Virus record (IMG/VR): IMGVR_UViG_3300032288_001948 | Coordinates: 1-62,377 of that record | Direction: 5' to 3' (one strand) | Origin: a virus | Taxonomy: Duplodnaviria; Caudoviricetes | Length of the DNA stretch: 62,377 nucleotides | Shown here: positions 19,003 to 41,288 of the stretch, one piece after another | How the letters are laid out: every line of letters starts with the position of its first letter | Numbering within the stretch: the stretch's first letter is position 1 | The notes under the pieces: model-generated | What the model saw: only the letters and a program-made list of their open reading frames with translations | What the model was told of the DNA's origin: nothing | The model's database searches: none | Made by a program: the position numbers and the translations under genes

Positions 19003-20052
19003 ATGAGTGCTGTCACATCTTATGGTGATATTTCACCTGCGGTTGCCGCCTATTCCGTGGTCCGTATGCTCAAGCGCGCGATGCCTTACCTGCATCTCGA
19101 AAAGTTTGGTCAGACCTACCCGCTGCCGACGAACTCCACGCAGACCGCGAAGTTCCGTCGTTACTTCCTGTCGGGCGCCGGCGGTTCCGCTGGTACGCAG
19201 TCCGCTGGTTCGGCGTTCTACATCCCGCTGGCGACGACTCCCCTGATCGAGGGCGTCACCCCGGCTGGCTCGCGCCTCGCAAATCAGGACTACACGGTTA
19301 CGCTGAATCAGTATGGCGACTTCGTCACCATCACGGACGTCGTGATCGACACGCACACCGACCCGGTTCTCCAGCAGGCCACGGACATCCTTGGCGAGCA
19401 GGCTGCCGTTACGGTTGAGACGCTGCGCTTCAACGTCCTGAAGGCGGGCACGAACGTGTTCTACGCCAACAGCGTTGCGGGTCGCACGACGGTCGCCGCC
19501 GCGATCTCGCTGGCTGATCAGCGTCGCGTCACGACTGGCCTGAACCGCCAGAACGCCAAGAAGATTTCGCAGGTTGTCGCCAGCTCTGCTGACTTCAACA
19601 CGAAATCGGTCGAAGCGTCCTACATGGCTGTTTGCCATCCGGACCTCGAAACCGACATCCGTTCGATGACGGGCTTCAAGGCGGTTGCGGATTACGGCCC
19701 GCACACGACCCCGTTCGAAGGCGAAATCGGCTCGGTCGAGCAGGTTCGCTATCTGACCTCGACGGTCATCAGCCCGTGGGCTGACGCCGCCACGGGTTCG
19801 ACCAAGGGCTCGATGCGCTCCACCAGCGGCACCTACGCCGACGTTTATCCGGTCCTCTACTTCGGCCGCGATGCGTTCGGTATCGTCCCGCTCAAGGGCA
19901 AGTCGTCCATGACCCCCATGGTCGTCAATCCGAAGCCGGCTCCGGGCGATCCGCTCGCTCAGCGCGGCACGGTCGGCTGGAAGCTGTGGACTGCCACGGT
20001 CATCCTTCAGGAAGCCTTCATGGCTCGCCTTGAGGTCGCTGCGACGGCCTAA
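19003..20052 (+). CDS. Major capsid protein (N4-gp56 family)
   Basis: YGDISP, KFRRY, LIEGVTP, QYGDF, GEIGSV, DPLAQRGTVGWK; strong codon bias. Confidence 0.92.
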   Translation: MSAVTSYGDISPAVAAYSVVRMLKRAMPYLHLEKFGQTYPLPTNSTQTAKFRRYFLSGAGGSAGTQSAGSAFYIPLATTPLIEGVTPAGSRLANQDYTVTLNQYGDFVTITDVVIDTHTDPVLQQATDILGEQAAVTVETLRFNVLKAGTNVFYANSVAGRTTVAAAISLADQRRVTTGLNRQNAKKISQVVASSADFNTKSVEASYMAVCHPDLETDIRSMTGFKAVADYGPHTTPFEGEIGSVEQVRYLTSTVISPWADAATGSTKGSMRSTSGTYADVYPVLYFGRDAFGIVPLKGKSSMTPMVVNPKPAPGDPLAQRGTVGWKLWTATVILQEAFMARLEVAATA

Positions 20053-21312: not shown

Positions 21313-21610
21313 AGCAGAACTGGGTGTAAATATCGAGCCGGAAATCAAGGTACGCAAGGCTAAGCCGATAGTTCCGGATACTGTTCGAATCGTCGTCGAA
21401 GAGAATGACGACATTCCACCGACTGGCCTGTTTCTGGGTCACAACGGCAAAGGTTATCTGATTCGCCCCGGCGAGCCAGTAGATGTGCCGAAGCACATCG
21501 TCGAGATTCTGGACCATGCCGTCATGTCGTCCCCGCAGATTGATCCCGGCACCAAGCAGGTGATAGGATATCGGGAGCGGATGAAATATCCGTATCGAAT
21601 CGTTAATTAA
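21305..21610 (+). CDS. Conserved phage protein of the head-completion region
   Basis: NGKGYLIRPGEPVDVP..IVEILDHA. Confidence 0.7.
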   Translation: MSEAELGVNIEPEIKVRKAKPIVPDTVRIVVEENDDIPPTGLFLGHNGKGYLIRPGEPVDVPKHIVEILDHAVMSSPQIDPGTKQVIGYRERMKYPYRIVN

Positions 21611-21619
21611 GGATGGACA

Positions 21620-22045
21620 ATGGCGGCAGATCAGCCCCGTGCGCCGACACAACGGCCCGGAAATCCAATTGATCTGTCGTTCGATGTTAACGACGCAGCC
21701 GCGTATTCTGGTGGATGGGCTCCTGTTGGCCATGCTGCTGGGTACGCGGCGCATCGTTTGGCGCCGTTGGCGTTGGGCGTCTTAGGTGCAGGCGGAGGTA
21801 TTCCGACCGGCGTCGCGCTTGGGTCTATGGTCCCGCAGGCGGCCAAGAGCCTGTATGACGCGCTTCCGTTACCCGGCCACGAGAATACTCCGATCCGTCA
21901 GGCCGGCGCCGCATCCCGCCAAGATTTCTATAATAATCTGAATCGTGGTAATTATGGTCATGCAGTCAAGGACGCGCTGCTTGCCAGCGGTATGACGCTG
22001 GGGCAGTTCATCCGCGATTTACCGCCACCAGTCCCGGGCCGATAA
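21620..22045 (+). CDS. Hypothetical protein, possible internal virion protein
   Basis: G/A-rich; shares a GxYGHA motif with 23314-24804. Confidence 0.6.
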   Translation: MAADQPRAPTQRPGNPIDLSFDVNDAAAYSGGWAPVGHAAGYAAHRLAPLALGVLGAGGGIPTGVALGSMVPQAAKSLYDALPLPGHENTPIRQAGAASRQDFYNNLNRGNYGHAVKDALLASGMTLGQFIRDLPPPVPGR

Positions 22046-22046
22046 A

Positions 22047-22814
22047 ATGAATCTTAGCGACTTGCTCGCAGAACTGCGGGAAAATATCCTCTACGACCGC
22101 TCGGACCGTGTTTCCGGCACACCGGATTATTTGTGGTCGGACGCCACCCTGATTCGCTATATCAATCAGGCGCAGAATCGTTTTGCGCGTCATGGCTTGG
22201 TCATTCGTGACGGCACTTCACAGGATGCGACGGAAGTCGTGATCCAGACCGGTGTGACCGAATACGCTCTGCATCCTTCCGTGCTGGCGGTGATCTCGGC
22301 CAAGATGCCGGGAGACACGGCGGACCTCGCCCGCGCGGGACACGCAGCGTTTCAGACTTATCGTCAGCCTGATCCGTACTTTTTCGATCCGGCTCAGCTG
22401 TCATCCATGCCGCCCGGTAAACCGCTGGCGTATGGCACAGACGAATATCTGAGCGCTGATGATTACGACGCAATTAGCGTCACGACCTTGCGGCTCTATC
22501 CCGAACCGACCGCGGACTACAACAATCAGATATTGCGGCTGCGTGTCGTTCGGCTCCCGTTGAACGAGTTGTCGATGACGACCGGGTTTAATTATCCGGA
22601 GATTCCGGCGGAGCATCATCTCGAAATGCTCGATTGGGCGGCGTATCTGGCGCTTCGCATTGTGGATGTGGATGGCGGGATGCCGGCGCGTGCCAACGAA
22701 TTTCGTGCATCTTTCGAAGATCATGTGAAGCGTGCGCGGAATACCGCGATGCGCAAAATGTTCACCCCGGCCCAATGGGGGTTTGGAAGATCGGGATTCT
22801 CATGGGAACATTGA
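22047..22814 (+). CDS. Head-tail adaptor/connector-like protein
   Basis: WSDATLIRYINQAQ, LRLYPEP, PEIPAEHH..LDWAAYLAL. Confidence 0.7.
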   Translation: MNLSDLLAELRENILYDRSDRVSGTPDYLWSDATLIRYINQAQNRFARHGLVIRDGTSQDATEVVIQTGVTEYALHPSVLAVISAKMPGDTADLARAGHAAFQTYRQPDPYFFDPAQLSSMPPGKPLAYGTDEYLSADDYDAISVTTLRLYPEPTADYNNQILRLRVVRLPLNELSMTTGFNYPEIPAEHHLEMLDWAAYLALRIVDVDGGMPARANEFRASFEDHVKRARNTAMRKMFTPAQWGFGRSGFSWEH

Positions 22815-23311
22815 CAGTTTCTCGATTGCACGAGCTTTTGCACTACGACCCTGAGACCGGAACGTGGGTGTGGCTTGTTGCGCGTACGGCGAAAGCGAAA
22901 ATCGGGACCGTCGCCGGCCGTCTGCATCATACTGGATATCGTCACATCGGTATCGACGGCCGCCGGTATGCGGCGCATCGCTTGGCGTGGCTGTATATGA
23001 CCGGGAAATGGCCTGCCGCGCAGATCGATCATGTTAATTTGATCAGAGATGACAATCGCTGGTGTAATTTGCGGGAAGCCACGCGATCTGAGAATTTTTT
23101 TAATCGTCGTGTACAATGTGATAGCGTGTCCGGAATCAAGGGACTCCGTCAACTTCCGAGCGGAAATTGGGGTGTTCGTGCGACCATAGATGGGCGCCAC
23201 CAATATCTGGGCACGTTTCCTTGCGCTGAACTCGCGGCATTTGTGCGTAGCGAGTTCGTTGATGCGCATCACGGCGAGTTCGGCCGTAATGGCTATACGT
23301 GGGAGCACTAA
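22802..23311 (+). CDS. HNH homing endonuclease with AP2-like C-terminus
   Basis: LHYDPETG, AHRLAWLYMTG, IDHVNLIRDDNRWCNLR, YLGTF; free-standing. Confidence 0.9.
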   Translation: MGTLTVSRLHELLHYDPETGTWVWLVARTAKAKIGTVAGRLHHTGYRHIGIDGRRYAAHRLAWLYMTGKWPAAQIDHVNLIRDDNRWCNLREATRSENFFNRRVQCDSVSGIKGLRQLPSGNWGVRATIDGRHQYLGTFPCAELAAFVRSEFVDAHHGEFGRNGYTWEH

Positions 23312-23313
23312 TT

Positions 23314-24804
23314 ATGGCCGGTCCGTTTGATCTAACTCCGTTTCAAAAGCAAAACGTCCAATCGTGGATGCGCGGGCCTATGACAACGGACCCGAAAGCG
23401 CTGCATCCGGATATTGCAAATATGGTGCGGGACGTAAGTAAAATGTATACACCATCTGGTGAACGTCCCGTAGGTGCTGGTCCGGCGATGCAGGCGGCGG
23501 TTCAGGGTCAGGCTCTTTCGCCGGCGCAGGAACCTGTACGGATGTATCCTGCGATGTCGGAGTTGGCATCAAGTATTCCTCCGCAAGGTCAACCGCGCGG
23601 TTATTCGGGTGTACCGTGGAATGCTCCCACGGCAACAGAAGTGCGGGGACTTGGTCCCCAGTCCGCGACGCCTGATCTCCAAACACGCTACAGCGCACCT
23701 ATTGGCGCGAAGCAACCCGCACCGCCCTTGAGCGAATTTATGCAAAAGATGGCAGATACGCGGGCGCCTGTCTCGGATGTGGCGCAGAAGATGAGTGGCG
23801 CGCGCCCTCAGACTGCAACTCCGGCCGAAGATGCCCGATTCCTCGGTAAATTGGCTGGTGCGGCCGGAACTGTCGGGGCAGCAATGCAGGGCGCTCCCAT
23901 CTCCACATTGGCGCGCGGCGCCGCCGTCGCGTACCCGGCTGTCAACGCGGCCGGACAGCTATTTCAAGGATTGTCGGATGCGGCGGCCGGTCGTCCGAAT
24001 GCTACAATCGAGGCATCTCGTCCCGCCCGTGAGCAGACATATCGCGATATTGCGGCCGGGGAATATGGCCACGCTCTAGGAAGCGCCATCCGCGCAACCG
24101 GGCAGACCGGCGGTCAAGTCCTCGGCAATATGCTCACACCATTTGGCAACGTGCTTCGCGGACTTACTGGTGCGCCAGCGGCGGCTGCTGCGGCTCCTGC
24201 ATCTGCGGCGCCTCAAGGATTGTCGGACCAGCAGTTCACACCGGGTGGACTCGGAGCGTATACCACGGCCCGCACGCGCGCGACGCCGTTAGATCAGGTT
24301 GTGGCGGCGCCCCCTGAAGTGACCGTCCCTGCGGCTGCCCCGCAAACATCGGCACCGGCGGCTACTGCTCCGACGCGATCAACTGTTAATGTCATTCGCG
24401 GCGGTCGAGCCCCCACGACATATGACGTGTCACCCGGCGTTCCGATTGGCACCATTGTGCGTCCCGAGGCGCCACGTTCACCGGCGCAGGCTGTTGTGGG
24501 GGATGCAATGTCTCAGCCGCTTTTCCCCGGTGATCGACCGGATCAACCGTTGGCTGTTCGACAAGCGATCGCGAACCTTGTGAAGTCGGCGAGTCCTCGG
24601 GCGCAGACGGCGGCTGATCGCGCTCGTGCGGCGGCTATGACAGATTACGATCTGGCGAATAAATATGAGCTTGATCCGTCACCAGACGCGCAGGCAAAGG
24701 CGAAGGTTTATAGGAAGCGTGCCGAAGATATGCTGAAACTGCTGTATCCGGCGGCAAGTGATCCGATGCGTGATCTACTTCGGCAGTCGCAAGAGGCAGA
24801 GTAA
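23314..24804 (+). CDS. Putative internal virion (ejection) protein
   Basis: A/P/G-rich ~496 aa before the giant virion gene. Confidence 0.65.
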   Translation: MAGPFDLTPFQKQNVQSWMRGPMTTDPKALHPDIANMVRDVSKMYTPSGERPVGAGPAMQAAVQGQALSPAQEPVRMYPAMSELASSIPPQGQPRGYSGVPWNAPTATEVRGLGPQSATPDLQTRYSAPIGAKQPAPPLSEFMQKMADTRAPVSDVAQKMSGARPQTATPAEDARFLGKLAGAAGTVGAAMQGAPISTLARGAAVAYPAVNAAGQLFQGLSDAAAGRPNATIEASRPAREQTYRDIAAGEYGHALGSAIRATGQTGGQVLGNMLTPFGNVLRGLTGAPAAAAAAPASAAPQGLSDQQFTPGGLGAYTTARTRATPLDQVVAAPPEVTVPAAAPQTSAPAATAPTRSTVNVIRGGRAPTTYDVSPGVPIGTIVRPEAPRSPAQAVVGDAMSQPLFPGDRPDQPLAVRQAIANLVKSASPRAQTAADRARAAAMTDYDLANKYELDPSPDAQAKAKVYRKRAEDMLKLLYPAASDPMRDLLRQSQEAE

Positions 24805-24806
24805 AC

Positions 24807-27800
24807 ATGCCGTTCGTTGACGAGAATCCATATTTCGCCGGCGCTGCACCGCAGCAGGATGCGACGCCTTCGCGGGAAATTGATTTCTCGCAATATCCCA
24901 GATTTGCCGAGCAGTTCGCAGCGAAAGAAGCCCCGGCGCGAGGTGTATTCGGTCCCGGTTTGCGTGCAGGATTCAATGAGCTTCAAGCTATGGGCGGCGC
25001 CGCGGCGTCGGCTCTTGGCGGTGCTGTAGGTTATCAGCCCCTTCAAGAATGGGGTGCTGATGTCAGCCGCGCAAATCAGGCGGAGGCCGCCAAGTACGGA
25101 CGTCCTGATCTTGAGACAGCTCCATGGCGTGAGGGCGGCGCCGGTTGGCTTCCATGGCTTGGGTATCAGGCCGCGAAGCAAATCCCGTTGGCCGGGGCCA
25201 CAATGCTCGGCACAGCGTTGTTTCCTGAAGCCGCTGTTCCTGCTGCTTTATCGCGCGCCGGCGCCGCTGTGCCTGAACTTCTTGGTGGTGGCGGTTTGCG
25301 GGCCGGTATGTCGGCGGCAGAGACTGCTGCGGCGGAGACTGCGGGTAAACAGTACGCCAAAAGTTTCTTGGGCGGTTCCGCGGTCAACCTGCCGGTGGCT
25401 GCTGGCAGTATGTATCAGGAAGCGATGGATCGCCCCGGCGGCCCGACGCAAGAAGACGCGATTAAAGCGTTGGCGATGGCGCCCGCGTATGCCGCGACAG
25501 AAGGTCTGGGCGGCGCGCTTGGCCGCGGGATTATTTCTGAGGCGGCGACCAAAGGCATTACCGCGACTGTGGGGCGTGCAGCTCTGCGTAGTGCGGTCGA
25601 GGAAGGCCCGACCGAGGCAGCCCAGACGGCGATGGAATTGTCGTTCCGTCCCGATATGTCGCCGGCGCAGAAAGCTAGTCAGATCGTCGATGCTGCATTG
25701 ACTGGCGCCGCGGTCGGCGGTGTTTTTGGTGCGGCTGGCGGTGGCGTCAACGCCGCCATGAACCCCATGCGCGCTACGAAAGATGTGGCGCCGAACCAGC
25801 TTACAAACGACGACATCCTCAACTCAGTGGACCAGACACTCGGTCCGCTGCCGAATGCGCCGGCCCAACAGGCAGATACCGAGCAGGTGACGGCTCCCGC
25901 CACACCATCTGAGCCTGCTCCGCCGCCAATGATGGCGCAGATTACCGAGGCTGAAGCTCCGGAAGCCGTGGCGAAGGAAGAATCGGCCGCAGCCGCCGAA
26001 CGCGTCGAGAAATTACAGACTTCGGTCGCTGACGCGATGGACGGCGGTGCGATCGCTCAGAATGTGAAAGTGGTCCAGCGGGTGCTGGGTGATGCACAGT
26101 CCCTGCCGGATGCGATCAGTAAATTTCTTGATATTCAGGATCAGGCCGACCAGAAGAAAGGCGCAGCCGCTGGTAGATTGACCGCTGCGCAAAAGAAGAT
26201 TGGTAGCGCGCTTGGCATTACGGACTCAGATGGTCGTCCGCTGGATATCGACGCTGAGATCAGCACTCTGACGCAGCAATTGACGGCTGCGCAGACGCCG
26301 CAGGCTCGTCAGCAGATTACGAATCAGATTGACCGGCTCGATCTGATTCGACCGGTTATCGAGGAAGTACGGGCCAGCCGCGCCGCGCCTGTCGAGTCCG
26401 TCGCGCCGGCGCCTGAAGAAATGCTCACTCCGCCTCCGCGCGAGGCCGCTCCGGCAACTGAGGAAGCTCCGGGTGCACGAGCACCAGCGGCTGCGCCCGC
26501 GGTGACATTAACTGCTGAAGCGGAAGACCTGCTGGCAAAGGGTGGTATTCCGTTCAAGGTCACGCAGAACCTCGCCAAGATTGCCAAAGAGAACGGCATC
26601 GAGGTCAAGGGCGCGAGCGGCGCCGAAGCTCAGCGAATCGTTGCAGAACTTCAAGCGATCAAGGACAGCCAGACGGCTGCACCAGCCACGGAGATTCCCA
26701 GTGCCATTCAAGAGCAAGGCCCAACGGGCGTATATGTTCAGCCAGCTCCCGAAACTGGCGGAGCAGTGGGCGAAGGAAACGCCCAAGGGGGCGAAGCTCC
26801 CGGAGAAGGTATCGGGGCGGCCTCAGAAACCCAACCAGAAGTCCCCACCACCCCCCCGTCAGAAGTAGCACCGCCCGCGGCGCCTGCGCCCTCACCGGCT
26901 GCTCAGACGTTTATGCAGCAGCAGGGCATCAAGCAGCTTTCGCCGGAAGAACGCGTCGCTGCACGCGAGCGGCAGAAAGTCGAGGAGGCGGCGTTTCTTC
27001 AGAAACGTCAGGCCCAGATTCGCGCGGCCAATGCCAAGAATGCTCAACGCGGCGGCGTGACGGCAGCACCCGTGGCGCCAAAGGGCATGACGCCCGAAGA
27101 ATTTCTTGCACGACGCAATCGCGAGCGTCCGTCGATGGGGGCTCTAGGCGAAGAATCTGAGTTAGACCGCGACATTTCGTCGCTGGTTGAGAATAACGCC
27201 AGCGGCAAACAAGTGCTGGATTACCTTGGGCAGCACGGAAAGACTGAGTTCGATCGGCTTCTTGCTCAGCATTTGTCTCGACTCGGCGTATCGCCGTCGA
27301 TGCAGTTCGAGGATGTCAACAACCCTGATCTTCAGCTTGATCGTGAGCAGGCCGCCGGACGTGAAATCCTCGGCTCGTACAACGTGGAGCAGGACCGCAT
27401 AAACTTATACAGTCGTGCGGGTTCGGCGCAGGTCACGCTGCATGAGGGAATACATGCTGCAACCGACCGTGCGATCCGCACCAGTTCGCCGGCAGCGCAA
27501 AAACTGAAAGATGTCTACTCAGAATTTATGGCGCGGCCGGAGCAGTATGATCGGTCGACCCCGGCGTATGACAATGAAGCCGAGTTCATCAGTGAAGCGT
27601 TCAGTAACCCGGATTTCCGTGAGTTTCTGAAGACGTTGCAGGTCGGCCCCAAGAATCTATGGGAAAAATTTAAGGACGCGGTGTTCAAATTGCTGCGGAT
27701 GCCGCAGCGTGCGCGCACGGTCTTTGATCAGGTGATGGAAGTGGGTGAGCCACTATTCCAAGAGAACCAGCAGACGACCATGGAGGACGTTTATCGCGCC

Positions 27801-30800
27801 ATGGGCGAGGAGCCTATTAACGAGTCACCATTCTCTGTAAACGAGCAGCTCGGTAAGATCGCGACGACGCTCGGTAAAGTGGCCGATAAGTTCGATCGCA
27901 CTGCGTCGCTCGGCGTTGCCGCTCGTCAGACTATACTGGGGTGGAACTCTATCACTCACATGGCGACACGTTACGGTAAACTGTTCACCTCTGGCGGTAC
28001 GAACTGGATACAGAAATACGCGGACTATAATCAGGAGCGTGCGGCGGTCGCGGCGCGTATGTCTCAGCTGTTTAAGAATGTGTACGACGATTACAAAGCG
28101 CTCGAAAAAAAGAGCGCGGCGGTCGCCGAAACATTTCGCAAACTCATGGCGTTGACCGAGTTCAATATCGACTGGCGTAAGTCGTGGGATGCGCAAACGT
28201 GGCTGCACGATCAGCCTAACAGCAAAGATTTACAAAGGCTGCACGCCGATATGCGGCGTGAAGGCGGCCGGTTGGACGCCGATACGAAAGGGTTGTTCGA
28301 TCGGTTCGAGGCGGTAAACAACGTCACGCGATATGCGCAGATGTCGTTATCACTTTACAACATGATCGTGGCTGACCCGGCTATGGCGAAGAATATCGCC
28401 AACTCTGATGTCGACCCGATTGACGAGTTTTTGCAACAGTCGTCACTCCACGAGAATCCTGCCGAAGCTCAAACTTATTGGCGGAAGACGCTTGAGAAGC
28501 AGCTGGCTGCGGCCGACCCGTTCATTAAGGCCCAGAATCGGATCATGAGGAAGGGTGCAACTGCGGCTGAACGCTCGAAAGCGCGGCAGATTCTTCAGCC
28601 TCTGTCGCAATTGGTTGACTCGACCAAGCAGACGATGACGGTGATGAAACAGTCGCCAAACTTCCATCTCGGGCGGTTTGGCGATTACATGGTTACATTC
28701 CAGATTAAGAAAGACGAGGCGGGCATCGACGCTGACGCTCAACGCCGCGTGGCTGCCGCCATGGATGCCGCAGGTGTACAAGCTCAGCTTTCACCGGAGA
28801 ACAACAATCCGACCGTGTTTGTGCGTGTCGAGACGATTGAGCAGGCTAAGAAGCTACAGGAGCTTGCTCGCGACATGCAGAAGCGCGGATGGCTTAATCC
28901 GGATGTAGAGCCTAAAGCGGGACTGCGCACGGATTCAGAGTTCAGGGATATCGCCAACCCGCAATGGCTCCAGAAATATATCGAGGCGCTTCAGTCTGAG
29001 ACGTTTGAGGACGAGGGACTCACGGGCGAGGCGGCGGAGCAGGCGATTAAAAACCGCAAGCAGATGGTTCAGCAGGCCCGCGAGCTATATCTGAATATGT
29101 TGCCAGATAACGCGTTGGCGAAGGTGTTGACTGAGCGTAAAAGCATCGCCGGCTACTCACCGGACATGATGCGCAGTTTCGCATTCCGTCATCAGATCGG
29201 CATGAACACGATCGCGAATCTAGCCACGATGCACAATATCGCAGGCTCGCTGACCGAGATGCGCCGCATCATCAACGCTGCCAAGACGGGCGACGTGCAG
29301 GATACGGTGAAGCTCCAGAATATCTTCAATGAGATTTCGCAGCGTGAAACCGGTCGATCGATGCAACCTCAGAATAGCTTCTGGGACAGCGTTCGCGCGT
29401 TCAATCACGCGTACTTCTTAGGCGCATCACCGTCGTACGTACTGGTCAATATGACCCAGCCCGGCGTCTTGTTGTGGCCCGAATTATCTAAGCAGCATGG
29501 CTATGTAAACTCGGGTAAGGCGATTGCCTCGGTTACGCCGACCGCGTTTAAGGTCATGGCGGCGGTCATGAAGGTTAGCAAGTCGGCCGACGCGATCATT
29601 ACTGAAAAATCGTTGAAGGCATCCGGCGTGGACGAGGCGACCGCTGATTTTATCATGCGCGTGGCAAACACCGGTAATCTTGATCTTGGCAGTACATCAC
29701 GTGAGTTAGGGCGCGTTGTCGATAAAGAGATGGATTCGCGCACCGATCAGCTCCTGCGTTGGGCGGCGGCGGCTGGGTATTATTCTGAGACGTTTACTCG
29801 TCTGTCGGCGGCGCTTGCCGCGCGAGAATTGTATCAAAACAAGTCCGACACCGAAGGCATGATGACTTATGTGAATAAGACCATCAACGAGTCCATGCTG
29901 AACTATTCGTCATGGAATACGGCCCGTCAGATGGGCAAGATGGGTGTGGCGGGCGAGTACACCCCGGTCATGTTCAGCTTCATGACGTATCAGGCGCAGG
30001 TGCTTGAGAAAATGTATCGTGAGCTGCGGGATGCGTTTGGTGGTTCGCCAGAGGCGCGGAGATTCTTGCTTTCGCACGCCGCTGCACTGACGGTCCTGTC
30101 GGGATCGCTCGGGCTGCCATTCGCTTCGGTCGCGGCGCGAGTATTCGATGGGCTCAAGGATGCATTCGGGGACGACGATGAGCCGTCAGATGTCAAATCG
30201 GCATGGCGGAATTTTCTCGCGGATATGTTTGGCAAAGAGGTCGGAGAAGTTCTGGCGCGCGGTGTACCGCGGGCGCTCGGGTTTGACGTCTCAAGCCGTG
30301 TGGGTGAAGCCGATCTGGCGCCGTTTAGCCGCTTCCTGACCGATCGCCGGGAATGGCGGGATGCCGCTCAAGACATGGCGCTCCGGACACTCGGGTCACC
30401 GGTGAGCATGGCGCTCAATATTCTTGAGGGAGGCACGCAGTTTGCGCGCGGGGATGCGATTGAAGGGCTCCAGAAGATGGTGCCAAACAGTCTCAAGGGA
30501 CCGATCGCCGCGTATCGCATGGCCGAGGATGGCCGGTATGTCGACAGTAAAGGTCGCGAGTTGCCGATGGAGCCGGGCGCACAAGATGTCTTGATCCAAG
30601 CGCTCGGATTTACACCACAGGCGAAAGCCGAGTACCAAGAAGCCAGCATGGCGCAGACAGTCCGCAAAGGGCTTCTGACGCGCGAAGGTGCGACGCTTCG
30701 CGATCAGTTGGTGGACGCCATCATGGATAATTCGGCCGACCGCGATCGACTTACACAGAAGGCGGTGGCTTATGATCAGGCCCATCCGGACCGCCCAATC

Positions 30801-30941
30801 CTGAAGTCGGTTGCGTCTACGATTAAACGACGGCGAGAAGGTCTGGCGTTATCGCGCGCGACTGGGGCGCCGCTTGGAGTCAAACCGCAAGATGTCGGCG
30901 CGCGTGGACTGACAACATATATGAATGTCGACATGCAGTGA
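24807..30941 (+). CDS. Giant internal virion / polyvalent protein (2044 aa) with zincin HEXXH and PLxRFG-like motif
   Basis: TLHEGIHAAT..EFISEAFSNPDF (MPTase-like); NFHLGRFGDY; C-terminal GSLGLPF. Confidence 0.8.
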   Translation: MPFVDENPYFAGAAPQQDATPSREIDFSQYPRFAEQFAAKEAPARGVFGPGLRAGFNELQAMGGAAASALGGAVGYQPLQEWGADVSRANQAEAAKYGRPDLETAPWREGGAGWLPWLGYQAAKQIPLAGATMLGTALFPEAAVPAALSRAGAAVPELLGGGGLRAGMSAAETAAAETAGKQYAKSFLGGSAVNLPVAAGSMYQEAMDRPGGPTQEDAIKALAMAPAYAATEGLGGALGRGIISEAATKGITATVGRAALRSAVEEGPTEAAQTAMELSFRPDMSPAQKASQIVDAALTGAAVGGVFGAAGGGVNAAMNPMRATKDVAPNQLTNDDILNSVDQTLGPLPNAPAQQADTEQVTAPATPSEPAPPPMMAQITEAEAPEAVAKEESAAAAERVEKLQTSVADAMDGGAIAQNVKVVQRVLGDAQSLPDAISKFLDIQDQADQKKGAAAGRLTAAQKKIGSALGITDSDGRPLDIDAEISTLTQQLTAAQTPQARQQITNQIDRLDLIRPVIEEVRASRAAPVESVAPAPEEMLTPPPREAAPATEEAPGARAPAAAPAVTLTAEAEDLLAKGGIPFKVTQNLAKIAKENGIEVKGASGAEAQRIVAELQAIKDSQTAAPATEIPSAIQEQGPTGVYVQPAPETGGAVGEGNAQGGEAPGEGIGAASETQPEVPTTPPSEVAPPAAPAPSPAAQTFMQQQGIKQLSPEERVAARERQKVEEAAFLQKRQAQIRAANAKNAQRGGVTAAPVAPKGMTPEEFLARRNRERPSMGALGEESELDRDISSLVENNASGKQVLDYLGQHGKTEFDRLLAQHLSRLGVSPSMQFEDVNNPDLQLDREQAAGREILGSYNVEQDRINLYSRAGSAQVTLHEGIHAATDRAIRTSSPAAQKLKDVYSEFMARPEQYDRSTPAYDNEAEFISEAFSNPDFREFLKTLQVGPKNLWEKFKDAVFKLLRMPQRARTVFDQVMEVGEPLFQENQQTTMEDVYRAMGEEPINESPFSVNEQLGKIATTLGKVADKFDRTASLGVAARQTILGWNSITHMATRYGKLFTSGGTNWIQKYADYNQERAAVAARMSQLFKNVYDDYKALEKKSAAVAETFRKLMALTEFNIDWRKSWDAQTWLHDQPNSKDLQRLHADMRREGGRLDADTKGLFDRFEAVNNVTRYAQMSLSLYNMIVADPAMAKNIANSDVDPIDEFLQQSSLHENPAEAQTYWRKTLEKQLAAADPFIKAQNRIMRKGATAAERSKARQILQPLSQLVDSTKQTMTVMKQSPNFHLGRFGDYMVTFQIKKDEAGIDADAQRRVAAAMDAAGVQAQLSPENNNPTVFVRVETIEQAKKLQELARDMQKRGWLNPDVEPKAGLRTDSEFRDIANPQWLQKYIEALQSETFEDEGLTGEAAEQAIKNRKQMVQQARELYLNMLPDNALAKVLTERKSIAGYSPDMMRSFAFRHQIGMNTIANLATMHNIAGSLTEMRRIINAAKTGDVQDTVKLQNIFNEISQRETGRSMQPQNSFWDSVRAFNHAYFLGASPSYVLVNMTQPGVLLWPELSKQHGYVNSGKAIASVTPTAFKVMAAVMKVSKSADAIITEKSLKASGVDEATADFIMRVANTGNLDLGSTSRELGRVVDKEMDSRTDQLLRWAAAAGYYSETFTRLSAALAARELYQNKSDTEGMMTYVNKTINESMLNYSSWNTARQMGKMGVAGEYTPVMFSFMTYQAQVLEKMYRELRDAFGGSPEARRFLLSHAAALTVLSGSLGLPFASVAARVFDGLKDAFGDDDEPSDVKSAWRNFLADMFGKEVGEVLARGVPRALGFDVSSRVGEADLAPFSRFLTDRREWRDAAQDMALRTLGSPVSMALNILEGGTQFARGDAIEGLQKMVPNSLKGPIAAYRMAEDGRYVDSKGRELPMEPGAQDVLIQALGFTPQAKAEYQEASMAQTVRKGLLTREGATLRDQLVDAIMDNSADRDRLTQKAVAYDQAHPDRPILKSVASTIKRRREGLALSRATGAPLGVKPQDVGARGLTTYMNVDMQ
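26701..26868 (+). CDS. Nested out-of-frame small gene (MPFKSKAQ type), 55 aa
   Basis: GGAG at 26690 then GTG at 26701; product MPFKSKAQRAYMFSQLPKLAEQWAKETPKGAKLPEKV resembles a small phage protein family I recall. Confidence 0.6.
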   Translation: MPFKSKAQRAYMFSQLPKLAEQWAKETPKGAKLPEKVSGRPQKPNQKSPPPPRQK

Positions 30942-39741: not shown

Positions 39742-40797
39742 ATGGCCGATCCTCAAGACCCACAGAATCCCGGCGACTCCATCACCTTTGCCAACTGGGA
39801 AGGTCTGCGGAATACTGTCACCCGTGAGCGGTTGAAGCCCACGGAGCTGGAGCGTGCGGTCAATATCGACATTGATGATGCTGGCCAAATTCATCGTCGT
39901 CGCGGCTATACTAAAGTCGCGGATGGAAACTACCATAGCATCTATTCCGATCAGTCCGGGCGTATGTTCGGGGTTAAGGACGGCGCGTTCGGCCTGCTAT
40001 ATCCTGATTATACTTTTGAGACACTTCTGCCGGGCGTGGGTCCGGATGATCTCGATTACGCTCGGGTAGGCGACGATCTGTATTTCTCGTCGGCGACGGC
40101 ATCCGGTGTAGTTGGGATTAACAATATCGTCTCCCAGTGGGGTGCCGAGGTGGCGCCGAATCAGTGGCTATCCCCGGTCGTTGTGCCCACCGAGACGCTC
40201 CCGCCGACGCGCGGCAAGTTCATTTCGGCGCCGCCGATGGCGACTGCGCTGACGTACTGGAACGGCCGTATCTATATGGCGAACAAGCATACCGTCTGGG
40301 CGACGGAACTGTATCTGTACAATTACGTCGATAAAACAAAGAACTTCCTCCAGTTCGAGTCCGAGGTCACCATGCTGGCGACCGTCACGGATGGGCTGTA
40401 TGTCGGCACGACCGAGTCGGTTTGGTTCTTGTCCGGACCGTTCAACGAGATGAAGCGCATCCCGATCATGAATTACGGGGTGATGCCCCGGTCATCGGTT
40501 GAGGTGCCGGCGGAGTTAATCAAACCGCAGATCAGTCAAGACCCCCAGTCGCCGATCAGGAACGCAGTTTTGTTCTTAACGAAAACAGGACTCTGTGCGG
40601 GATTCGACGGCGGAATCATTTACAATTTGACGCAGGCCGAGGTATTATTCCCCGACGCGATTGCGGCGGCCCCAATGTTCCGGCGTCAAGACGGTGTCAA
40701 TAGCTATGTGGTCACGACCAATAGCGGTGGCACCCCGTCCGCAAACACGCGGATCGGGGATTATGTAGACGCCGAAATCAGGAGATTTCAAGGGTGA
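39742..40797 (+). CDS. Virion structural protein (tail, beta-propeller-like)
   Basis: AVNIDIDDAGQIHRRRGY, GRIYMA, VTDGLYVGT. Confidence 0.7.
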   Translation: MADPQDPQNPGDSITFANWEGLRNTVTRERLKPTELERAVNIDIDDAGQIHRRRGYTKVADGNYHSIYSDQSGRMFGVKDGAFGLLYPDYTFETLLPGVGPDDLDYARVGDDLYFSSATASGVVGINNIVSQWGAEVAPNQWLSPVVVPTETLPPTRGKFISAPPMATALTYWNGRIYMANKHTVWATELYLYNYVDKTKNFLQFESEVTMLATVTDGLYVGTTESVWFLSGPFNEMKRIPIMNYGVMPRSSVEVPAELIKPQISQDPQSPIRNAVLFLTKTGLCAGFDGGIIYNLTQAEVLFPDAIAAAPMFRRQDGVNSYVVTTNSGGTPSANTRIGDYVDAEIRRFQG

Positions 40798-41288
40798 TTA
40801 CGCAGGCTGAGCTTAAAGAGATGCTCGACTATGACCCTTCCACTGGTGCGTTTGTGTGGATGACCAGTCATGCGCGGAAATCTGAAAACCCTTCGTTAGC
40901 CGGTTACATTCATCGAAAAGACGGCTATAGGTATATTCGTATCGTCGGACGGTCATATGCAGCGCATCGTTTAGCCCATTTGTACATGCGTGGTGTCTGG
41001 CCGACTGCACAGGTTGACCACATCAATCTGCTGCGGGACGACAATCGGTGGTGTAATCTGCGGCTGGCTACGTGCTCTCAGAATCACGGAAACCAGCGTA
41101 GGTATCGCAACAATACTGTCGGGCTCAAGGGGGTGTCATGGCGGGAAGATGTTCATCGCTGGAAAGCGAAGGGCATGGTCCGTGGACAAACCAAATATCT
41201 CGGCTACTTCGATTGTCCGGCGGCGGCACATCTCGCCTACGTCGTTTGGGCAGATACATCTTTCGGCGAGTACGCGCGAGCAAACTAA
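40794..41288 (+). CDS. HNH homing endonuclease with AP2-like C-terminus
   Basis: LDYDPSTG, AHRLA.LY, VDHINLLRDDNRWCNLR, YLGYF; paralog of 22802-23311. Confidence 0.9.
   Translation: MITQAELKEMLDYDPSTGAFVWMTSHARKSENPSLAGYIHRKDGYRYIRIVGRSYAAHRLAHLYMRGVWPTAQVDHINLLRDDNRWCNLRLATCSQNHGNQRRYRNNTVGLKGVSWREDVHRWKAKGMVRGQTKYLGYFDCPAAAHLAYVVWADTSFGEYARAN

Follow-up and report, generated by a model that had tools for sequence, protein, structure and literature searches.

A free-standing HNH nuclease gene within the last codons of a phage adaptor gene, with a probable replacement gene end

Results

We analysed the complete virus record IMGVR_UViG_3300032288_001948 (Duplodnaviria; Caudoviricetes; 62,377 bp with direct terminal repeats; hereafter the window), in which an HNH endonuclease gene begins inside the last codons of an adaptor gene and both proteins end in a version of the same short peptide. 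The adaptor gene (22047..22814, + strand) encodes a head-to-tail connector of 255 aa that matches PF24175 SU10_adaptor (E 3.4e-15; 57.4 bits against a cut-off of 27) and phrog_399 and is placed in the head-neck module; its open reading frame (ORF) ends ...WGFGRSGFSWEH followed by TGA. The HNH gene (22802..23311, + strand; 169 aa) matches PF13392 HNH_3 at residues 56-98 (E 1.1e-15; 57.4 bits against a curated cut-off of 24.8) and phrog_99 at residues 4-165 (E 6e-60), and ends ...HHGEFGRNGYTWEH followed by TAA (23279-23311). The predicted catalytic columns are intact: in an alignment of 21 sequences D76-H77 are invariant, and N89, N98 and N101, all present here, are conserved in at least 90%. 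The HNH ATG (22802) lies inside the adaptor tail in another frame, with a 13-nt overlap between the two genes; a TTG at 22811, overlapping the adaptor TGA, is an alternative start. The HNH stop is abutted by the ATG (23314) of the next gene (23314..24804, + strand; 496 aa, no family match). The ORF map confirmed every position at which a first-pass annotation of this DNA had placed the tails, the HNH start, the GGAG motif and the following ATG, as well as the 497-bp spacing.

The upstream tail (FGRSGFSWEH plus TGA; 22782..22814, + strand) and the downstream tail (FGRNGYTWEH plus TAA; 23279..23311, + strand), 497 bp apart, had been described as similar in protein and recoded in DNA, and this holds. 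Seven of the ten residues are identical and the other three are conservative changes (BLOSUM62 score 52), with 18/33 identical bases (16/30 coding) and a longest exact shared run of 5 nt. Chance resemblance is excluded: among the 96 six-frame ORFs of at least 100 aa, the tails form the sole C-terminal 10-mer pair, of 4560, that scores at least 30, and only the two tails, among 22,501 window 10-mers, score at least 28 against the adaptor tail. The upstream copy has a GC content at third codon positions (GC3) of 0.3, compared with 0.65 in the adaptor body, and uses the rare codons AGA (2% of Arg), GGA twice (12% of Gly) and TCA (13% of Ser). The downstream copy, now the C-terminus of the HNH protein, has a GC3 of 0.7 and uses common codons such as CGT (30% of Arg) and GGC (43% of Gly). 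Each tail also holds signals for the gene that follows it: GGGA (22793-22796), five bases 5' of the HNH ATG, and this start codon itself in the upstream copy, and GGAG (23300-23303), ahead of the ATG at 23314, in the downstream copy. The GGGA is created by the substitution N249S (AAT to TCG) together with a change of GGC to GGA, and S249 therefore marks the alleles occupied by the HNH gene.

The two families differ in how they naturally end. We found 57 relatives of the adaptor; in an alignment of 25 adaptors F246 and G247 never vary, and W253 is kept in at least 90%. Across 74 distinct adaptor 3' ends of relatives, taken from viral and metagenome contigs, the family ends almost everywhere in W-G-F-G-R-N-G-F-S-W-E-x (WGFG in 61 ends, a WEH terminus in 7). 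The 90% cluster of the window adaptor comprises ten variants, every one of 255 aa. A search of solved structures with the adaptor profile returned a single weak match, the 'structural protein' chain 26fb_T (E 1.7e-4), which leaves the tail uncovered, so that a structural role of the tail is deduced from conservation alone.

For the HNH family we examined the ends of the best 120 of 2193 homologues, that is 119 non-self proteins. None of them has a W-[ED]-x terminus. In a motif search, 34 ended exactly two residues past H-G-E-F-A/G-R and a further 14 at a distance of one, three or four residues; three have a natural G-E-F-G-R. All 19 aligned full-length homologues, including HNH2, a second HNH gene of the window, and two HNH proteins of the relative L011, stop 1-3 residues past the motif; the window HNH alone runs on (...YTWEH), 4-6 residues beyond their ends. 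Since the HNH family ends near the motif and the adaptor family ends in W-G-F-G-R-N-G-F-S-W-E-x, the N-G-Y-T-W-E-H on the nuclease is adaptor sequence. Judged from these family ends, F-G-R is common to both families, as part of the HNH C-terminal motif H-G-E-F-A/G-R, and only N-G-Y-T-W-E-H is unambiguously adaptor-derived. The earlier claim that the adaptor C-terminus is duplicated on the nuclease thus stands for N-G-Y-T-W-E-H and is ambiguous for F-G-R, and WEH is not a natural HNH end; HNH2, for instance, ends in GEYARAN. Many homologues that carry PF00847 AP2 align over the C-terminal half of the window HNH; Pfam AP2 itself gave no match in this protein even at E ≤ 10, and in HNH2 it scored E 2.7e-4, below the curated cut-off. 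In the HNH collection no protein is more than 62% identical to the window HNH, whose 90% cluster contains no other member.

We compared positions 21600-24800 with contigs of four public runs (X2, X3, X4 and X7) from 4 studies. The occupied allele is present in all four: in X2 one 44-kb contig spans the whole interval with 81 differences and no gaps, in X4 a contig covers 21600-23318, and in X3 and X7 the HNH gene is covered piecewise with 0-1 differences. Run X3 contains, in addition, a contig of depth 3.4 in which window position 22780 is joined to 23279 through one other letter, a net change of -497 bp, and whose last 30 letters align on 23279-23308. The segment of the occupied allele that is absent from this empty allele is thus 22781..23278 (+ strand); a single nucleotide stands in place of these 498 nt. 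By alignment to the window, the joint contig encodes, in the frame of the adaptor, ...W-G-F-G-R-N-G-Y-T-W-E-H, that is a 255-aa adaptor with the downstream tail. In the same run the contig of the occupied branch ends at 23308, the contig common to both alleles starts from 23279, and the joint contig extends over exactly 30 letters from that point, as fits two alleles merging at 23279 if the contigs are, as we presume, word-graph assemblies with 31-letter words. A repeat-induced assembly artefact is excluded as the source of the joint, because no long word is common to the two tails. Contig breaks in X3 hint at a further difference of the empty allele near 22775.

The downstream copy is the native tail, as had been proposed. 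Firstly, the empty allele continues into the downstream copy from 23279 onwards. Secondly, this copy uses common codons. Thirdly, NGYTWEH lies within local variation, as close relatives in the 90% cluster end in NGFTWEH, NGFNWEH, NGFSWEH or NGYSWEH. The first-pass annotation had also predicted that an empty allele would end like the downstream copy and abut the next gene; this is what the X3 joint displays, and 72 of the 74 distinct relatives have no HNH gene after the adaptor. A start for the next ORF could be located in 68 HNH-free relatives, and in 45 of these it lies no more than 4 nt from the adaptor stop. Counted by eye, identity to the relative L003 is 25/33 for the downstream tail and 22/33 for the upstream tail; sliding identity against L003 and L004 cannot discriminate the native tail, because third positions are near saturation (along most of the adaptor, only about 50% of third positions agree with those of the closest HNH-free relatives beyond the 90% cluster). 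An exact 38-nt query made of the native tail and the next start gave 0 matches in a collection whose answers omit near-identical records.

An HNH gene of the same family occupies the adaptor junction in the remaining two of the 74 relatives, L011 and L047. In L011 (adaptor 63%, HNH 45% identical) the nuclease gene is free-standing, placed after the adaptor stop and before the next gene; no tail is duplicated, and the nuclease ends in HGNFARA, its TGA overlapping the next ATG. In L047 (adaptor 59%, HNH 39% identical over 77 residues) the HNH gene starts inside the last adaptor codons, in the same register as in the window. WSFG...AWSW in place of WGFG...GFSW is found in L011 (4720-4768) and L047 (1320-1367) only, of the 74 ends; as both are HNH-occupied, tails linked to a nuclease are atypical even as protein. 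Further free-standing HNH genes of this family lie at other capsid-neck junctions of relatives (L011 2200-2691 and 4773-5264; L027 and L032 2406-2891; L031 685-1164 and 2397-2891), so that the structural module of this phage group is a frequent landing ground for them.

The S249 tail is present in three of the ten variants of the adaptor cluster (P0121, P0125 and P0130), on 1+2+1 = 4 contigs, and the exact HNH protein is likewise recorded on 4 contigs. The 8 residues at which P0125 and P0130 depart from the window adaptor all fall within the first 182, and from 183 to 255 both are identical to it. The other seven variants (P0122-P0124 and P0126-P0129, on 15 contigs) all carry S249N and six of them N217A; P0127 shares the 160-182 block of P0125 and P0130 and differs at 217, 222, 226 and 249. 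At the nucleotide level, an X3 contig over 22745-23098 has 0 differences from the window and an X7 contig over 22703-22887 has 1, while contigs of the adaptor body in X3 and X7 have 19/188, 21/398 and 15/134 differences (5-11%). The adaptor of the X2 contig has 8 residue differences from that of the window, and the product of the next gene has 2; the X2 HNH protein must equal that of the window, since the 90% cluster of the HNH has no second member. Judging from these alignments, the HNH gene and the last ~40 adaptor codons form one haplotype common to strains with different adaptor bodies. The upstream flank that travels with the HNH gene (22695..22781, + strand; left edge approximate, within codons 183-217) is a probable co-conversion tract, and the HNH gene with about 100 bp or more of this flank has likely spread recently among diverged strains by co-conversion.

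Elsewhere in the adaptor gene, a 48-nt stretch (22287-22334) is 98% identical to L003 (third positions 0.94), the remaining gene being 67-85% identical; a small patch of recombination or a site under constraint could account for it. Upstream lies the major capsid gene (19003-20052; PF25209, phrog_1357), separated from the adaptor gene by several small ORFs, and a 2044-aa ORF (24807-30941) directly follows the 496-aa gene. HNH2 (40794-41288), an HNH_3 paralogue located between two tail-module genes, is 45% identical to the first HNH; its GTG start overlaps the stop of the gene upstream (39742-40797), and it has no duplicated host-gene end. The phage itself is recorded from metagenomes only, and isolated phages are distant kin: the best adaptor match, at 32% identity, is in Pseudomonas phage Rollin, F116-like phages come next at about 26%, and in the phage collection all 39 adaptor records and all 3006 HNH records are below 60% identity. 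A search of viral contigs with the 496-aa protein found no relatives. One contig of run X4 tracks the window to 23318, where 594 other letters replace 492, and rejoins it at 23811. This makes the N-terminal portion of the gene for the 496-aa protein an exchangeable cassette, with a left boundary 7 nt past the HNH stop. The GC content of the HNH gene (0.50-0.575) is only slightly below that of its flanks, so that composition alone is no mark of foreign origin. Promoter-like and terminator-like sites are no more frequent than in shuffled sequences (2 against 2.1 and 3 against 2.8).

Discussion

These observations make it very probable that the locus holds a free-standing HNH homing element which carries a replacement 3' gene end and sits within the last ten codons of the adaptor gene without an intron or intein. 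The structure and polarity of the interpretation offered in the first-pass annotation are thereby supported. The mobile unit would be about 0.5 kb long and consist of the diverged replacement tail FGRSGFSWEH with its stop, followed by a nuclease ORF that takes its ribosome-binding site and start from within that tail. Lacking a stop codon of its own, this ORF reads into the resident tail ...NGYTWEH, displaced 497 bp downstream. Because the unit brings a replacement tail, the adaptor stays full-length with a near-consensus C-terminus; because the native tail is retained, the next gene keeps its native ribosome-binding site and stop/start coupling. Translation of the next gene is coupled to the ORF that ends with the native tail, be it the adaptor or the nuclease. 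Insertion also leaves the sequence that spans the insertion point split in occupied genomes.

We propose that the nuclease would be made at a low level, through re-initiation at the adaptor stop. During mixed infections it might nick or cut HNH-free genomes near the adaptor tail codons, and repair from the occupied genome would then copy the unit and some 100 bp or more of the flank upstream of it, that is intron-less homing with co-conversion. The fusion of the nuclease to the native tail could have arisen if the right-hand repair junction fell on an F-G-R-coding microhomology, between a nuclease end H-G-E-F-G-R-x-x and the resident W-G-F-G-R; the natural H-G-E-F-G-R-x-x ends of 3 of the 119 homologues fit such a junction. 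Immunity through the recoded tail would follow from a recognition site placed across the left junction or within the tail codons.

Several points weigh against this interpretation. The empty allele is a single contig of depth 3.4, from one run and with 30 letters past the joint, and run X3 belongs to the same study as the likely source sample, though to another sample. No empty-allele joint is found in the X2, X4 and X7 contigs, which say nothing on its absence. Cleavage of the empty allele by the nuclease, the cleavage site and the immunity of the occupied allele are putative. As the native tail is intact downstream, a recognition site wholly within it would leave occupied genomes non-immune. 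A reading of the recoding as an adaptation to resist cleavage is further weakened in two ways: at a third-position identity of about 50% between lineages, a tail from another lineage would look 'recoded' anyway, and part of the recoding builds the HNH ribosome-binding site and start codon. L011, with an HNH gene at the junction and no duplicated tail, suggests that the replacement tail may be the by-product of one imprecise repair rather than obligatory, and the L047 contig stops before the HNH end. Finally, the strict pattern H-G-E/D-F-A/G-R-x-G/A-aromatic-x-W, run over viral contigs, yielded 0 further fusions of an HNH to an adaptor tail, a scan that looser variants could escape.

Part of this evidence suits an origin by one-off illegitimate recombination, which we regard as possible, if short of probable. 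The mobile element would then be the HNH gene alone, placed after the adaptor stop as in L011 and L047; the upstream tail would be the end of the donor's adaptor gene and not an immunity cargo, and a single event would have joined the HNH 3' end to the recipient's adaptor tail at the F-G-R microhomology. L011 provides such an undecorated junction, F-G-R belongs to both families, the strict scan of viral contigs gave no second fused case, and the third-position identity of about 50% is the ordinary distance between lineages. Against it, one HNH-plus-tail haplotype recurs in 4 studies and across strains whose adaptor bodies differ, so that it now behaves as a unit, and any further spread into the empty allele observed here must carry the upstream tail. 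This alternative concerns the origin and 'purpose' of the arrangement; it is largely compatible with a homing element that carries a replacement gene end, and we take it seriously as a view of the origin.

The polarity could also be reversed, the occupied form being ancestral and the HNH-free allele of X3 a deletion between the tail copies. Two short direct repeats do flank the HNH gene, and homing endonuclease genes are known to be lost. We nevertheless judge this very unlikely: exact runs shared by the repeats reach 5 nt at most, the letter at the X3 joint is found in neither copy at that position, and a chance in-frame deletion is unlikely to restore a consensus adaptor of 255 aa. Moreover, 72 of 74 relatives are empty, seven of the ten cluster variants have N249 tails, and the protein collection holds no second HNH more than 62% identical.

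A target-site or local tandem duplication of the tail upon insertion, the copies diverging in place thereafter, is scarcely credible. Direct repeats around an insert are a hallmark of transposition, but a fresh duplication would yield two equal copies, and the empty allele aligns on the downstream copy instead of running colinearly into the upstream one, which is alike at only 18/33 bases. The ORF map contains neither a transposase nor terminal inverted repeats, and we know of no target-site duplications made by HNH homing elements. That the HNH gene lies in a self-splicing intron, or that splicing or recoding completes the adaptor with the downstream tail, can practically be dismissed, for although group I introns bearing HNH genes do occur in phage structural genes, no Rfam family matched 22300-23800 on either strand at E ≤ 1, the upstream tail already yields a full-length, near-consensus adaptor with its own stop and a spliced product would duplicate nothing, so that the proposal of an intron-less insertion made in the first-pass annotation holds.

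The homing element with a replacement gene end could be part of something larger. The stretch coding for W-G-F-G-R-N-G-F-S-W-E might be a long-standing homing site of a dedicated HNH lineage, with the tail as an obligatory, co-evolving immunity cassette and gene-end replacement as a general practice in phages; we think this doubtful. What points to an obligatory cassette is that three occupied alleles, with nucleases 39-45% identical, each have an atypical tail (WSFG..AWSW in L011 and L047, S249 in the window). If true, it would be an overlooked route by which phage nucleases enter essential coding sequence without an intron or intein. As a bolder addition, the adaptor-derived peptide might tether the nuclease to the binding partner of the adaptor in the neck.

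To our knowledge, free-standing homing endonuclease genes of phages are thought to be confined to intergenic gaps unless an intron or intein shields the gene. The present locus points to a third option in a phage, in which a substitute gene end lets the element occupy an essential structural gene at no cost to its protein. Both alleles occur in nature, and with a defined difference of 498 nt and an enzyme of 169 aa the proposal is directly testable. For annotation, short duplicated gene ends beside nuclease genes mark recombination boundaries, and they can be mistaken for fusion proteins or sequencing errors.

Comparison with known systems

The free-standing endonuclease genes of T4-type phages offer the nearest phage comparison. 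In the part of a review of intron-less homing in T4 that was available (PMC2988022), an overlap of the nuclease start with the upstream ORF is described as usual (segF 11 bp, segC 20 bp, mobA 23 bp, mobC 24 bp), and the HNH members nick one strand. The window locus resembles these seg and mob genes in that the nuclease lies between or at the ends of conserved genes, is sporadic and overlaps the upstream ORF at its start (13 bp here); co-conversion of flanking markers, described for the T4 genes, is likely in the window. Unlike the window HNH, the seg and mob genes, as that part of the source presents them, sit between genes and neither replace a gene end nor become fused to a displaced one; the words 'duplication' and 'duplicated' are absent from it.

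In phage Aeh1, insertion of mobE splits nrdA into two polypeptides that reassemble and bear novel tails, which became essential, according to the accessible portion of PMC3045599. There, as in the window, an HNH-type endonuclease lies inside an essential phage gene and sequence born of the insertion provides functional termini. The window adaptor, in contrast, is unsplit: it is made whole by a homologous replacement tail, and the nuclease takes up the native one. Nuclease genes at exchange boundaries, and a homing endonuclease family combining HNH and AP2, are mentioned in the available text of PMC10448857. As far as that mention goes, the window HNH is like this family in its N-terminal HNH_3, in a C-terminal half that aligns with PF00847-bearing homologues and in a natural family end H-G-E-F-A-R, and unlike it in that AP2 is undetected by Pfam and the C-terminal extension is adaptor-derived. 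In the full-text literature we found no phage case of gene-end replacement; most subscription journals lie outside that coverage, and a prior report is possible.

The closest likeness is with fungal mitochondria, as the first-pass annotation had pointed out, and the precedent is real. The parts of PMC3630166 available describe mobile ORFs (mORFs) that bring a foreign carboxy-terminal to atp6 of Allomyces macrogynus, to atp6, atp9, cox2 and nad3 of a Glomus sp., to atp9 of Rhizopus oryzae and to cox2 of Mortierella verticillata. In these hybrids the native copy is 91-98% identical in nucleotides to an ORF-less relative, the inserted copy is 64-81% identical in DNA, and its protein is less diverged. 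Within the scope of that description the window shares several features with them: an endonuclease ORF in the 3' part of an essential gene, with an inserted C-terminal in frame with the core; a native C-terminal that stays downstream and resembles the ORF-less allele more than the inserted copy does; an inserted copy conserved as protein and diverged as DNA; and, in some of the fungal cases, an ORF that is in phase and lacks a stop there, as the window HNH lacks a stop of its own. It differs from them, on the same description, in that the host gene encodes a structural protein of a phage virion, the nuclease is HNH_3 and not LAGLIDADG or GIY-YIG, and the duplicate comprises only 10 codons. Furthermore, the window nuclease starts in the inserted tail in another frame and is fused to a native tail that serves translation initiation of the next gene. 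Thus, the window locus has the structure that defines an mORF hybrid without being a member of those element families; the HNH-adaptor unit is a phage counterpart of the fungal mitochondrial mobile-ORF hybrids, and it ties phage biology to the 'hybrid gene' phenomenon of fungal mitochondria.

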